From NCBI RefSeq assembly GCF_030013595.1, contig NZ_CP122768.1: a stretch of DNA of 64,000 nt; one strand, 5' to 3'. How positions within the stretch are numbered: position 1 is the first letter of the stretch; each line of letters opens with the position of its first letter. Positions 4,220-62,700 of the stretch are shown piece after piece. The position numbers were made by a program, and so were the translations under genes. A model generated the notes under the pieces. The model made no database searches, was not told the DNA's origin, and saw only the letters and a list, made by a program, of their open reading frames with translations. This DNA comes from Escherichia coli. Its GTDB lineage: Bacteria; Pseudomonadota; Gammaproteobacteria; Enterobacterales; Enterobacteriaceae.

Positions 4220-4940
4220 GAATCAGAGTCTCGATTAGTTTGTCTGCTTCAATCCCAGATGCAGAAGCATTAAAGATTTTGAGATGAAGACCGGTCAATT
4301 TTTTCTCGGCGAGTGCTTCCTTTACATAAATATCAAGCGGCTTTAGTGAGCTTTCCTTAACAGGAACCTTTACAAATGGAAGCTTTATAAAAATTCTCGC
4401 CGCGACGCTATATAATGTAGGCGATAGTGGTTGATCTCGATATTCTGCAAACATCCTATCATCGACAACAATCGCTGAAACGCTTTCGAAGTTGTGCCCT
4501 TCTAACAACCTAAGCTCTTCCTCGCTGTAATAAAGAAAATATTTTTTAAAATAATATGGATTCTCTTCAATTCCAAACACCTTACTCTCAATTCCATTAA
4601 AATCAACTCGGTGCCTTAATTTATGCAAAATAATCAGATCGGTATTTTTATCGAAAGCAGGATCAGATTTGAATGTTTCAGGAGCATACAGTAACACTAA
4701 TTTATTCAGCACCTGCGGTGATGGTATATTTTCACACTCAACCACAGCGAGGAATCGCTTCCTATCTCCACTATCCTGACTAAAATAAGTCAAAGACTTA
4801 TAATCAACACCTTCAAGACCAGCTAAAGTTTCTCCTGCCGAATACTCTATGGTGACGTCATCTGCTTTAGAATAGTCGCCTGTATTAAACAAAGTAAACT
4901 CATGTTTCAAGGCAGCCTGTAGAACAATATCTTTAATCAT
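4185..4940 (-). CDS. Middle component (251 aa) of the three-gene ATPase operon; candidate LmuC/kleisin-like protein
   Basis: ORF track; overlaps the upstream gene by 8 nt and the downstream gene by 35 nt (translational coupling); AT-rich; no motif recognised by eye. Confidence 0.75.
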   Translation of the reverse strand: MIKDIVLQAALKHEFTLFNTGDYSKADDVTIEYSAGETLAGLEGVDYKSLTYFSQDSGDRKRFLAVVECENIPSPQVLNKLVLLYAPETFKSDPAFDKNTDLIILHKLRHRVDFNGIESKVFGIEENPYYFKKYFLYYSEEELRLLEGHNFESVSAIVVDDRMFAEYRDQPLSPTLYSVAARIFIKLPFVKVPVKESSLKPLDIYVKEALAEKKLTGLHLKIFNASASGIEADKLIETLIHEEMENIQPQD

Positions 4941-56679: not shown

Positions 56680-57690
56680 ATGAAGGCTGCGGTTGTTACG
56701 AAGGATCATCATGTTGACGTTACGGATAAAACACTGCGCTCACTGAAACATGGCGAAGCCCTGCTGAAAATGGAGTGTTGTGGTGTATGTCATACCGATC
56801 TTCATGTTAAGAATGGCGATTTTGGTGACAAAACCGGCGTAATTCTGGGCCATGAAGGCATCGGTGTGGTGGCAGAAGTTGGCCCAGGTGTCACCTCATT
56901 AAAACCAGGCGATCGTGCCAGCGTGGCGTGGTTTTACGAAGGATGCGGTCATTGCGAATACTGTAACAGTGGTAACGAAACGCTCTGCCGTTCAGTTAAA
57001 AATGCCGGATACAGCGTTGATGGCGGGATGGCGGAAGAGTGCATCGTGGTGGCGGATTACGCGGTAAAAGTGCCAGATGGCCTGGACTCGGCGGCGGCCA
57101 GCAGCATTACCTGTGCAGGGGTCACCACCTACAAAGCCGTTAAGCTGTCAAAAATTCGTCCAGGGCAGTGGATTGCTATCTACGGTCTTGGCGGTCTGGG
57201 TAACCTCGCCCTGCAATACGCGAAGAATGTCTTTAACGCGAAAGTGATCGCCATTGATGTCAATGATGAGCAGTTAAAACTGGCAACCGAAATGGGCGCT
57301 GATTTAGCGATTAACTCACGCACTGAAGACGCCGCCAAAATTGTGCAGGAAAAAACCGGTGGCGCTCACGCCGCGGTGGTGACAGCGGTAGCTAAAGCTG
57401 CGTTTAACTCGGCGGTTGATGCTGTACGAGCAGGCGGTCGTGTTGTGGCTGTCGGTCTGCCGCCGGAGTCTATGAGCCTGGACATCCCACGCCTTGTGCT
57501 GGATGGTATTGAAGTGGTCGGTTCGCTGGTCGGCACGCGCCAGGATCTCACCGAAGCCTTCCAGTTTGCCGCCGAAGGCAAAGTGGTACCGAAGGTCGCC
57601 CTGCGTCCGTTAGCGGACATCAACACCATCTTTACTGAGATGGAAGAAGGCAAAATCCGTGGCCGTATGGTGATTGATTTCCGCCGCTAA
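56680..57690 (+). CDS. adhP: Alcohol dehydrogenase, propanol-preferring
   Basis: 336 aa from [11 protein letters not shown]; zinc-ADH motifs (GHEGIG, CxxCxxC); K-12 synteny. Confidence 0.95.
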
Positions 57691-57835
57691 GAGGCCTTTG
57701 CTGCGACTGCCATGTTCGGGTCGCAGCATCGCACACTCTCCAACATGAAATGGCTAAATGGATTATTGTTGCGTAGGAAGGAACAATAATGATAGTGTTC
57801 CTGGTGAAGGAACGCTACTGAGAGTAAAGACACTA

Positions 57836-58120
57836 ATGAAAATGGCCAATCATCCCCGCCCGGGGGACATTATTCAGGAATCACTGGACGAACTTAATGT
57901 CAGCCTGCGCGAGTTTGCCAGAGCAATGGAAATTGCGCCCTCAACGGCAAGCCGATTGCTGACCGGAAAAGCAGCTTTGACACCAGAAATGGCGATTAAA
58001 CTTTCCGTGGTGATCGGCAGTTCGCCGCAAATGTGGCTGAATCTGCAAAACGCCTGGAGTCTGGCAGAGGCAGAAAAAACGGTGGATGTGTCGCGATTAC
58101 GCCGTCTGGTTACGCAATAA
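57836..58120 (+). CDS. yddM: HigA-like Xre-family antitoxin homologue YddM
   Basis: 94 aa from [14 protein letters not shown] region; no HigB-sized ORF fits in the 145 bp upstream. Confidence 0.85.
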
Positions 58121-58150
58121 AAAAATGGCGCTTCTTAAAGCGCCATTTTC
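58121..58150. terminator. Bidirectional rho-independent terminator between convergent yddM and fdnI
   Basis: AAAAA-TGGCGCTT-ctta-AAGCGCCA-TTTTC: stem flanked by an A-run and a T-run. Confidence 0.65.
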
Positions 58151-58170
58151 AGCTTAAAGTTCAAAAGAGA

Positions 58171-58824
58171 TTATATCCCTTCTTCACTCTCTTTTTTCGC
58201 TTCTGCCTTCTCGATTTCACGATACCAGCGCGGATGGTGTTTCTTCGCCCAGCGACGGCTCACCTTTCCTTCGATCATCCCTTTAATCGATCCTTTCACC
58301 CAGAATGCCATATACATATGGATCAGGATGGCGTGGATCAGGATGATACCCGCAGCCGCGTGGATCAGCAGGCTATAACGGACAACCTGTATCGGGAAGT
58401 ACTGCGCAAAGTACGGACGCCAGATAATCACCCCGGTCACCAGCAGCACGAAAATCATGCTCATGATCGACCAGAACATCATCTTTTGCCCGGCGTTGTA
58501 CTTACCAACATCCGCCACTTTGTGCTCATTGCCTTTTAATACTTCGACAATGTTCAACAGCCACGGAATATCTTTCTTATCCGGGATGTTGTGATGCACA
58601 AAACGCACAAACATAAACATCAGCGCGACGAAAATCGCAATGCCGAAGAACGGGTGCAAAATGCGCCCCATCTGCGGCGTACCGAAGGTTTGCGTCAGCC
58701 ATTGCAGCGTCGGGAAGAAGAACGAAATCCCGGACAGCGCCACCAGGAAGAAGCAAATCACCACGGTCCAGTGACAGGCGCGATCAATAAATTTGGTGCG
58801 CACAATCATTTTCGACTTACTCAT
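58171..58824 (-). CDS. fdnI: Formate dehydrogenase-N cytochrome b556 subunit
   Basis: 217 aa from [12 protein letters not shown]; 4 TM helices with haem-ligand His; overlaps fdnH by 8 nt. Confidence 0.95.
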
Positions 58825-59713: not shown

Positions 59714-62700
59714 TTACGCCTTCTCAATGTTGACTAAGAACGCTTTATATTCCGGCGTTTGCGAGTTTGCATCACCGACATTCGGCGTCAGAGTGTTAGC
59801 GATATAACCTTTACGCGCGACACCCTCAAAGCCCCAGTGGATTGGAATACCCACCGTTTCAACCTGCTGACCGTTTACATTCAGCGGCTTCAGACGGCGC
59901 GTTACCACAGCCACCGCGCGGATAAAGCCACGCTTGCTGGATACGGTGACACGGTCGCCATTGGCGATGCCTTTCGCCGCCGCCAGCGTTTCGCTGATTT
60001 CCACAAACTGTTCCGGCTGAGCAATGGCGTTGAGCAATGCATGCTTAGTCCAGGTGTGGAAGTGCTCGGTCAAACGATAGGTCGTACCCACATACGGGAA
60101 CTGCTCTTTTTTACCCATCCGCAGCGCGTCTTGTTCATACAGACGAACGACCGGGTTAGACACCACGTTCGGATGCAGCGGGTTAGTGCCCAGCGGCGTT
60201 TCAATTGGCTCGTAGTGTTCCGGGAACGGACCTTCCGCCATTTTGTTGATGGCAAACAGGCGTCCCATCCCTTCCGGCTGCATGATAAACGGTCCGGTTG
60301 GCGTACCTGGCGCGGCATTGCCGAAGTCAGGAATATCGTTACCCGTCCACTTGCTGCCGTTCCACTGGATCAGCATCCGTTTCGGATCCCACGGTTTACC
60401 GTTGATATCCGCCGAAGCACGGTTGTAGAGTACGCGACGGTTGAGCGGCCACGCCCAGGCCCATCCCAGCGTATTCCCCAGACCGGACGGGTCGGAGTTA
60501 TCGCGGTTAGCCATCTGGTTGCCCTGCTCTGTCCAGCTACCGGTGTAGATCCAGCAAGACGATGCGGTTGTACCGTCATCACGCAGATGCGCAAAGCTAC
60601 TCAGCAACTGACCTTTCTTCGCAATCAGCACGCCATTAGCATCATAGAGATCTTCCAGCGCATAGCCGTTATTCTCTTTCGCCACTTCGTCAGACTGCGG
60701 TTCGTGCGGCTGCTTGTAGTTCCAGCTCATCTTCATCAGCGGTTCTACGCCTTTACCACCTTCGGCCTGGTACAGCTCGCGCAGATGATGGTAGATACCC
60801 GCCAGAATTTCGCCGTCGTTACGCGCTTCGCCCGGCGCGTCCTGACCTTTCCAGTGCCACTGCAACCAGCGACCGGAGTTAGCAATAGAACCATCTTCTT
60901 CAGCAAAGCAGGTCGAAGGCAGACGGAATACTTCAGTCTGAATAGACGCCGGATCGACATCGTTCGACTCGCCGTGGTTCTGCCAGAAGGTAGAAGTTTC
61001 AGTCACCAGCGGATCGATTACCACCATGTACTTCAGCTTGCTCAGGCAGCTCACCACTTTGTTTTTGTCCGGGAAGGACGCAACCGGGTTAAAGCCCTGG
61101 CAGAAATAACCGGTGACTTTGCCTTCGTCCATCATGTTGAAATACTTGATGACGTCGTAGGTCTGGTCCCACTTCGGCAGCCAGTCGTAGCCCCAGTTGT
61201 TCTCTTTTTGCGCGGCATCGCCGTAGAAAGATTTCATCAGGCTAACGAAGAACTTCGGATAGTTGCTCCAGTAGTTCACCTGATCAGCCAGCGTCGCTTT
61301 CGGCGTATTCGCTTCCAGATACGACTGCAAATCAACCTGTTTTTCTGACGGCAGCGTCAGATAACCCGGCAGGCTGGTTGAGAGCAGACCTAAGTCGGTC
61401 AGGCCCTGAATGTTGGAGTGACCACGCAATGCGTTCACGCCGCCACCAGCCATACCCATGTTACCGAGCAGCAATTGGATCATCGCCATGGTGCGGATGT
61501 TCTGCGCACCCACGGTGTGCTGCGTCCAGCCCAGCGCGTACAGGAAGGTGGTAGTGCGATCCGGCGCGCTGGTGGAGGCCAGCACTTCACACACTTTCAG
61601 GAAGTCGGCTTTTGGCGTACCGCAGATGTTTTCAACGACGTCCGGCGTGTAGCGGGAAACGTGCTCTTTCAGCAAGTTCCACACACAGCGCGGATGAGTC
61701 AGTGTTTCATCGCGTTTCGCATAGCCGTTTTCATCGAACTGATAGTTCCAGGACGATTTATCGTACTGGCGTTTTTCAGCGTCATAACCGCTGAACAGGC
61801 CATCTTCGAAAGCAAAATCATCACGCACCAGCAGGCTGGCGTTGGTGTAATGCTTAACGTATTCGGCGTTGATTTTGTTGTTTTCGATCAGGTAGCGCAA
61901 AACGCCAGACAGGAACGTAATGTCCGTACCGGAACGAATAGGTGCGTAAATATCCGCCACAGAAGCGGTACGCGTAAAACGGGGATCGACAACGATCAAG
62001 GTTGCATCGTTGTTGTTTTTCGCTTCCATCGCCCAGCGGAAACCGACGGGATGCGCTTCCGCAGCGTTACCACCCATCACCATTACGACGTTAGCGTTTT
62101 TGATATCCACCCAGTGGTTGGTCATCGCACCGCGACCAAATGTTGGAGCAAGACTTGCTACCGTTGGTCCGTGTCAGACGCGCGCCTGGTTGTCTACCGC
62201 CAGCATCCCGAGGGAGCGGGCAAATTTTTGAGTCAGCATCCCGGTTTCGTTGCTGGCACCGGAGGCACACAGCATACCGGTAGAAAGCCAACGGTTTACC
62301 GTTACGCCCTGCTCGTTCTTTTCAATAAAGTTAGCGTCACGGTCAGCTTTCATCAGCTTCGCAATACGGGAGAATGCTTCTTCCCAGCTAATGCGCTGCC
62401 ATTTGTCAGAACCTGGCGCACGATATTCCGGGTAGCGCAGACGGTTTTCGCTGTTGACGTAATCCAGCAAACCGGCCCCTTTCGGGCACAGCGCACCACG
62501 GCTTACCGGATGATCCGGGTCACCTTCAATGTGATAAATCGCTTCTCTGGCGTTTTTCGCGCCATCACCCAGGCTATACATCAATAGCCCGCAACCTACG
62601 GAACAATATGTGCAGGTGTTACGGATCTCTTTAGCGCGTAATAATTTGTAGTTTCGCGCCTGAGCCAGTGCTTGCTTCGGGGCAAAGCCCAATGCCGCTA

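Follow-up and report, generated by a model that had tools for sequence, protein, structure and literature searches.

The yddM gene of Escherichia coli: an orphan HigA-family antitoxin at a locus that has lost its toxin gene

Why does yddM, which encodes a HigA-like protein, stand in the Escherichia coli chromosome without a toxin gene beside it? A preliminary description of the locus proposed that yddM is a solitary antitoxin homologue, possibly the remnant of a toxin-antitoxin pair or a regulator. We analyzed the gene in a 64,000-nucleotide stretch of E. coli DNA (hereafter the window, to which all unqualified coordinates refer), in complete E. coli genomes and at orthologous loci of other species. 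The orphan status and origin of yddM have already been published and the structure of its product has already been solved; the presence of the antitoxin partner alone in HS and K-12 at this locus, known as TA20, was published in 2020 (PMC7232551). Because the antitoxin-only state of K-12 and HS is in the literature, the added value of the present work is modest. It consists of the frequencies of the toxin states, outgroup evidence for an ancestral toxin, the near-exact deletion of the toxin ORF, and a conserved two-operator architecture.

Results

YddM belongs to the HigA family

The window comes from an E. coli chromosome. It matches strain 2012C-4221 with 100% identity over the query and K-12 with 96.4%. 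The gene order is maeA and adhP on the plus strand, then yddM on the same strand (Table 1), then fdnI, fdnH, and fdnG on the minus strand. Because adhP, stop codon included, ends at 57690 and yddM starts with an ATG at 57836, the gap measures exactly 145 bp (57691-57835), the length given in the preliminary description; the start given there for the feature, 57691, is the first base of this gap and not of yddM. Among the neighboring genes, adhP of strain UTME-13 contains an internal stop and has been annotated as a pseudogene, and an IS200-family insertion lies within the 1-kb region in some strains (APEC17, PRO_A-1505-6W-A_ESBL). The fdnG frame (59714-62125, minus strand) is listed only from an internal ATG, as 803 aa, and the annotated gene is 3048 nt long in related records; the short frame is consistent with the in-frame UGA selenocysteine codon known from formate dehydrogenase-N.

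Upon comparison with the NCBIfam equivalog TIGR02607 ("HigA family addiction module antitoxin"), YddM scored 93.7 bits (curated cutoff 47.7, E 4.5e-27), and residues 3-81 aligned with profile positions 1-80 of 81, a match over the full profile. Pfam HTH_3 was found at residues 14-65 with 39.1 bits (cutoff 23). The two matches bear out the earlier reading of YddM as an Xre/HigA-like protein. Across all 94 residues, YddM is 100% identical to PDB entries 2ICP/2ICT, "antitoxin HigA," which come from E. coli CFT073 (PMC6987408). Comparison of the CFT073 structure with the PaHigA dimer gave a Z of 12.6 and an rmsd of 1.2 A over 87 C-alpha atoms, and its HTH motif is N-terminal (PMC6987408). The HTH_3 match and the identity to 2ICP/2ICT thus assign to YddM an XRE-type N-terminal HTH fold and a structured dimer. 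A 120-aa extension of the ORF from an ATG at 57758 was rejected: it adds no domain and crosses the conserved operator region described below, and the records that we inspected annotate yddM as 285 nt and 94 codons.

Table 1. Sequence features at the yddM locus, in window coordinates
Feature	Start	End	Strand	Description
Stem-loop after the adhP stop codon	57699	57728	+	TGCTGCGAC, 12 nt, GTCGCAGCA; 9-nt perfect inverted repeat
Operator-like palindrome O1	57767	57785		TGTTGCG-TAGGA-AGGAACA; overlaps the putative -35
Putative weak sigma-70 promoter	57769	57796	+	TTGCGT (57769-57774), 16 nt, GATAGT (57791-57796)
Operator-like palindrome O2	57796	57814		TGTTCC-TGGTGAA-GGAACG; right after the putative -10, over the likely transcription start
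Deletion scar	57831	57840	+	CACTA/ATGAA; site of the 279-nt toxin ORF in toxin-bearing strains, from alignment with the intact allele
yddM	57836	58120	+	Orphaned 94-aa HigA-family antitoxin/XRE helix-turn-helix protein; 94 codons plus TAA
Hairpin between convergent yddM and fdnI	58124	58147		10-bp perfect, AATGGCGCTT-CTTA-AAGCGCCATT; read from sequence

The window contains no toxin gene

A HigB-type toxin needs ∼279 nt, and so the 145-bp gap has no room for one, as had been argued from its length. We also looked for a small toxin ORF that might have been missed in the gap and found none. Translation in six frames yielded only three gap ORFs of at least 25 aa, namely 25 aa on the plus strand (57712-57789) and 48 and 28 aa on the minus strand, and none of them resembles HigB. 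A lenient tblastn search of the whole 64-kb window with the cognate HigB described below (E up to 100, word size 2) returned only noise, the gap included, with a best E of 0.14 at 4394-4495, and revealed no toxin remnant at the locus. The earlier view of yddM as a solitary antitoxin homologue therefore agrees with both the ORF listing and the tblastn search.

In the window, no HigB/PF05015 gene lies directly upstream of the antitoxin in a toxin-first operon, and the intact, co-transcribed toxin of a functional type II module (higBA) is missing because its ORF has been deleted. The locus should not be classed as a toxin-antitoxin system; YddM is a member of the HigA family by descent that is orphaned here. 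One could still suppose that the system works with an unrecognized toxin, encoded by one of the small gap ORFs or elsewhere and paired in trans. We give this almost no credence: the gap is an old promoter region rather than coding sequence, toxin DNA is single-copy in toxin-bearing genomes and was not found in toxin-less ones at megablast sensitivity, and yddM has been deleted in K-12 both in the Keio collection and by lambda-Red.

A toxin gene precedes yddM in other E. coli and in other species

Strain CB6886 has a gene of 279 nt between adhP and yddM that overlaps yddM by 1 nt, ending on the A of the yddM start codon. The 92-aa product of this gene matches the Pfam PF05015 HigB-like toxin family with 64.4 bits and aligns end to end with the archetypal HigB endoribonuclease of Proteus vulgaris Rts1 (4MCT_B, E 8e-32), with which it shares a C-terminal YEDYH. 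Of 5426 complete E. coli genomes, 1331 contain DNA of this toxin, in one copy each and always at the yddM locus; the type strain ATCC 11775, Nissle 1917, and ExPEC strains are among them. CB6886, E20, and AR_0013 encode the same YddM protein as the window next to an intact toxin, and on the strength of this identity the window protein has presumably kept the capacity to bind and neutralize the cognate HigB.

Not all of these toxin genes are intact. In strain 1162C, the toxin gene (record positions 1977-2254) has a 1-nt deletion at about codon 33 that causes a frameshift. The same 278-nt span was seen in 16 of 40 evenly spaced rows of the toxin-bearing set, EC958 and O25b:H4-ST131 strains among them; from these spans, ∼40% of toxin-bearing E. 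coli probably carry the 1162C frameshift, which we infer to be the ST131 allele. The toxin of bat isolate A3 (record positions 701-970) lacks residues QVK owing to a 9-nt in-frame deletion.

We determined the frequency of the toxin-less state using a 100-nt probe centered on the yddM start of the window. The junction is common to 4002 of 5426 complete E. coli genomes (∼74%), and in toxin-bearing genomes the probe matched only from 5 nt before the yddM ATG onward. Together, the 4002 genomes with the junction and the 1331 with the toxin account for all 5333 genomes matched by the probe, which implies that E. coli is essentially biallelic at this locus. The toxin-less allele is present in the window, K-12, O157:H7, O91, and O103:H2.

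For the outgroup comparison we used 30 loci from other species of Enterobacterales with YddM orthologues of at least 57% identity. A full-length HigB gene with the same spacing was located directly upstream at 24 of them. All four Escherichia loci, E. albertii and a cryptic-clade strain included, have the toxin and are flanked by adhP and fdnI. Citrobacter has a full-length toxin at 10 of 12 loci, with fdnI adjoining the pair at all 12, and an upstream HigB is also found in Cedecea, Buttiauxella, Pluralibacter, Enterobacter, Chimaeribacter, and Erwinia. In Citrobacter sp. FP75, C. portucalensis, and two Xenorhabdus species, the toxin gene has suffered a truncation or frameshift, and Chimaeribacter californicus lacks it altogether; the toxin has decayed several times independently while the antitoxin was kept.

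The presence of HigB upstream at 24 of 30 loci of other species, including all four Escherichia, marks the toxin-bearing state as ancestral. If the toxin-bearing allele were instead a recent insertion, the outgroups would be expected to lack it, and the data point the opposite way. The preliminary description had called for a synteny comparison, and the PF05015 toxin upstream of yddM in 1331 of 5426 E. coli genomes and at 24 of 30 loci elsewhere, together with its deletion in the window, supports the suggestion made there that yddM is the remnant of a toxin-antitoxin pair.

The toxin ORF was removed almost exactly

Alignment with the intact allele placed the scar of the deletion immediately around the yddM start (Table 1). 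The pentamer ATGAA is found twice, once at the start of the toxin and once at that of yddM (ATG AAA); the likely true toxin start is ATG ATA ATG AAT, and the Pfam alignment begins at residue 4. Two placements of the breakpoints fit about equally well. An ATGAA/ATGAA placement removes 272 nt, and a CAC/CAC placement, which joins the CAC of toxin codon 7 to the CAC-TGA at the toxin end, removes 255 nt. Recombination between the ATGAA repeats would put the yddM ATG at the position of the former toxin ATG. The O91-type toxin-less allele reads CACTGATG, resembling the toxin 3' end, and the flanking 20 nt have diverged, so that the breakpoints can be placed either way. The Shine-Dalgarno sequence for yddM, a GAGGA within the toxin 3' end, went with the deletion, and for this reason yddM expression may be low.

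Between the toxin-less and toxin-bearing alleles, adhP is 96%, yddM 98.9%, and fdnI 99.7% identical. Two segments of the gap, the 33 nt to the left of the O1 repeat (57729-57761) and the 21 nt to the right of O2 (57815-57835), could not be aligned to any toxin-bearing allele, and no homology to either segment was detected in the toxin-bearing E. coli allele or in the promoters of other species. This implies that the toxin-less allele is no one-step derivative of the present intact allele and that its history goes beyond one simple deletion. A blastn-short search for the source of the left flank, covering both strands of the intact locus and the whole window, returned only chance matches of 8-11 nt. 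A likeness of ACATGAAATGGCTAAATGG to the yddM start TGATGAAAATGGCCAATCA was considered as the origin of the flank and dropped, as it was not significant.

A further form of the gap was seen in O157:H7 strain TR01, where record positions 1102-1246 correspond to 57691-57835 of the window. This singleton (1 of 5426 genomes) has the same length of 145 bp and is chimeric. Its left flank is of the intact type, its 29-bp O1 palindrome is of the window type, and it retains the final 47 nt of higB, but it lacks both O2 and the promoter -10. Other O157:H7 genomes have the window-type allele, unlike TR01. The TR01 allele is either an independent rearrangement, a recombinant, or an assembly artifact, and an inversion was rejected as its explanation upon inspection of the sequence.

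The gap retains the putative control region of the former operon

Two operator-like palindromes, O1 and O2, are found in the gap on either side of a -10-like sequence (Table 1). O1 lies within a longer perfect inverted repeat at 57762-57790 (ATTATTGTT, 11 nt, AACAATAAT). We compared 24 promoter sequences from at least nine genera and obtained the consensus TGTTgCg-N5-cGgAACA .. tgaTAnt .. GTTCC-N7-GGAACA. The O1 half-sites TGTTgCg and cGgAACA are conserved among these sequences, the O2 pattern GTTCC-N7-GGAAC is at least 90% conserved, and the -10-like block tgaTAnt between the operators is conserved across genera. Within the 64-kb window, the operator pattern matched only O1, O2, and one chance site with two mismatches. 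A manual count from the alignment of the control core (57767-57814) gave 39 of 49 positions in common with the intact E. coli allele; of the 10 that differ, 7 are in the operator spacers.

A strict scan for consensus promoters and terminators over 57600-58250 on both strands called 0 sites, and hence the promoter assignment comes from cross-species conservation alone. On this basis, TTGCGT-16-GATAGT is the putative promoter of the former higB-yddM operon and now of yddM by itself, and we infer O1 and O2 to be its operators. A table of sigma70 RNA polymerase binding sites contains a K-12 entry between yddM and adhP, labeled "Internal Promoter" and given with no hexamers (PMC3946193).

The 11-nt spacer between the 9-bp repeats ATTATTGTT and AACAATAAT is polymorphic. 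It reads GCGTAGGAAGG in the window, K-12, and O157 and is exactly reverse-complemented (CCTTCCTACGC) in three toxin-less strains, O91 RM7190, S19-141, and VCSW8; in other genera, the O1 spacer is oriented as in the window. This inversion probably arose by a hairpin or template switch. The stem-loop after adhP, when the window is set beside RM7190, S19-141, and VCSW8, likewise comes in two alleles that differ in the loop and in an extended stem, GCTGCGAC-TGCCATGTTCGG-GTCGCAGC versus GCTGCGAGTGCCAGTCCTGGTGTCGCAGC, a difference that looks like quasi-palindrome remodeling.

The adhP stem-loop is kept in both toxin-less and toxin-bearing alleles, and it was left uncalled by the terminator scan because it has no T-run. 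It is probably the end or a stabilizer of the adhP transcript and as such the upstream limit of the yddM control region. On the other side of yddM, the hairpin shared with fdnI is likely a bidirectional terminator whose A/T runs favor fdnI on the minus strand. This hairpin was not called by the scan of 57600-58250 either, and an Rfam search of 57500-58300 gave only sub-threshold sRNA matches, all over this hairpin, the best with 28.8 bits against a gathering cutoff of 50. The yddM-fdnI spacer (58121-58170 in the window) measures 50 bp in the window, ∼228 bp in O157 and others, and 406 bp in K-12. The excess in K-12 is a tandem duplication of a ∼178-bp unit with REP-like palindromes (gcctgatgcgctacgcttatcaggcctac; gccggataaggcgttcacgccgcatccggca), and the three lengths thus correspond to 0, 1, or 2 copies of a REP/BIME unit.

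yddM is intact in all toxin-less genomes sampled

If yddM had been functionless since the loss of the toxin, it should be slowly decaying, and several points fit such a neutral relic. Antitoxins are necessarily lost after toxins, so that orphan antitoxins are expected transitional states; toxins have been inactivated repeatedly next to a retained antitoxin, as in 1162C, Citrobacter sp. FP75, C. portucalensis, Xenorhabdus, and Chimaeribacter californicus; yddM is dispensable in K-12, as the Keio and lambda-Red deletions attest; and the original ribosome-binding site disappeared with the deletion. The sequences themselves argue otherwise. Among nine toxin-less yddM sequences, we counted 10 segregating sites in 285 nt, of which eight are synonymous and two non-synonymous, against a neutral expectation of ∼76% non-synonymous (binomial P = 3.3e-4). 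Both non-synonymous changes, E80A and T93A near the C terminus, occur in one O157:H7 strain, and the same protein is encoded in 7 of the 9 toxin-less genomes sampled, K-12, O91, and an O157:H7 strain included, as well as in toxin-bearing strains.

The diversity of yddM within the toxin-less class, ∼3.5%, indicates that the deletion is not recent, yet every sampled copy is intact, while adhP has acquired an internal stop in one sampled strain. The operator half-sites, too, have been kept while the spacers between them changed. Taken together, these data favor purifying selection on yddM, although the test is weak, with nine sequences, most polymorphic sites shared with toxin-bearing alleles, and recombination able to import variants that had already been filtered. 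We accordingly judge it unlikely that yddM is a functionless relic.

Discussion

Toxin loss, HigA family membership, identity to a solved HigA dimer structure, and a retained operator architecture come together at this locus. The explanation that we consider probable is that a toxin-first higB-higA operon was inherited vertically and lost its toxin by deletion, that yddM is its antitoxin gene, and that the product of yddM persists under selection as a self-repressing HTH protein with minor regulatory roles. An operon of this kind stands between adhP and fdnI in Escherichia. In the lineage of the window, which makes up ∼74% of complete E. coli and includes K-12 and O157:H7, an almost exact deletion of the toxin ORF has left the yddM start codon at the former toxin start, behind the original operon promoter and two palindromic operators. 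The YddM dimer may still bind O1 and O2 and repress its own weak promoter, and, in the absence of the toxin, YddM would be a small XRE-type DNA-binding protein with few secondary targets. Selection, and not mere lack of time for decay, would have kept the gene intact.

HigA antitoxins are autorepressors. Because they are, and because K-12 YddM has ChIP-exo binding data, regulation by YddM is compatible with an origin as a relic antitoxin, and the two readings are not mutually exclusive. K-12 YddM was profiled by ChIP-exo, with RNA-seq, as a candidate transcription factor (PMC6237786). A CRISPRi/a single-cell screen described differentially expressed genes consistent with YddM binding sites along with new connections (bioRxiv 10.64898/2025.12.20.695731), and a genetic-interaction map ties yddM to stress regulators (PMC9283627). 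The only K-12 deletion phenotype that we found is the hypersusceptibility of the Keio yddM mutant to epetraborole, which was reported uncomplemented (PMC12457515).

YddM might also be maintained as an anti-addiction or immunity protein that neutralizes HigB from plasmids, from phages, or from the ∼25% of E. coli with higB. Chromosomal CcdA is an established case of such protection, and a like role has been proposed for orphan antitoxins (reviewed in PMC7354431); the cognate toxin circulates within E. coli, and HigB homologues were found on 539 plasmid records (99 from Escherichia) and in Escherichia phage GER2. However, homologues on true plasmids, of the Rts1 type, are at most 56.5% identical to the cognate toxin, among the three plasmid-record matches above 90% is a 4.9-Mb record, evidently a chromosome, and the best phage match, in GER2, is 60.9% identical. 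Toxin-antitoxin pairs are usually insulated from one another (PMC7354431), and cross-neutralization at such a distance is unproven. Immunity as the reason for the retention of yddM is, to our minds, quite improbable, and we return to the self-repressing regulator as the preferred reading.

A bolder reading, doubtful but not far-fetched, is that the locus is a long-lived polymorphism of E. coli in which HigB is present in ∼15%, frameshifted in ∼10%, and deleted in ∼74% of genomes while the antitoxin is fixed and near-invariant, with orphan YddM actively maintained either as a domesticated regulator with a small regulon or as standing immunity. If this is true, standing immunity would mean that a higB gene regained from mobile elements, or from other E. 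coli through recombination, does no harm in the presence of YddM, and small templated rearrangements of the operators, such as the inversion of the 11-bp spacer between 9-bp inverted repeats, could tune YddM expression.

For annotation, the locus is best described as an orphan antitoxin after deletion of its toxin and as neither a toxin-antitoxin system nor a regulator that arose de novo. It offers a natural example of the order of decay, in which the toxin is lost first and the antitoxin is kept, and the intact, frameshifted, and deleted states segregate at one locus within one species. With these three states, one could ask whether orphan antitoxins are under selection, as regulators or for anti-addiction, or are simply slow to decay.

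Comparison with known systems

The closest counterpart of the locus is parE-2/higA-2 (TA20) of AIEC NRG857c and UPEC CFT073, which has the same position and the same antitoxin, with a 279-nt toxin gene and a 285-nt antitoxin gene overlapping by 1 nt; the window differs from it in the missing toxin gene. A parallel exists at the AIEC ybaQ locus, where an upstream toxin of the PF05015 family is kept (parE-1/higA-1, TA19) and K-12 and HS have the antitoxin alone (PMC7232551). YbaQ of K-12 (PDB 2EBY) is an orphan HigA-like XRE protein that YddM matches with E 5.6e-9, and it too is treated as an uncharacterized transcription factor. It differs from YddM in its locus and in its length of 113 aa.

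HigB-HigA of Rts1 from P. vulgaris (PDB 4MCT/4MCX) belongs to the same families and shares the toxin-first order. YddM matches Rts1 HigA with E 1e-18, and the toxin missing from the window aligns end to end with Rts1 HigB at ∼56% identity, as measured by tblastn against the same toxin on a Providencia plasmid. Whereas Rts1 higBA is plasmid-borne and complete, the yddM module is chromosomal, stably placed beside fdnGHI across genera, and has lost its toxin. The Rts1 higBA promoter reportedly also has two operators, a point ascribed to Schureck et al. 2014.

Lastly, the ccd system of Erwinia chrysanthemi, which acts against the ccd of the F plasmid, exemplifies a chromosomal antitoxin able to neutralize a related incoming toxin (PMC7354431), and YddM could act alike. 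It is set apart from ccd by the relatives that its toxin has on mobile elements, of which the closest found have no more than 56.5% identity when on true plasmids and 61% when on a phage; a close mobile counterpart was not found.
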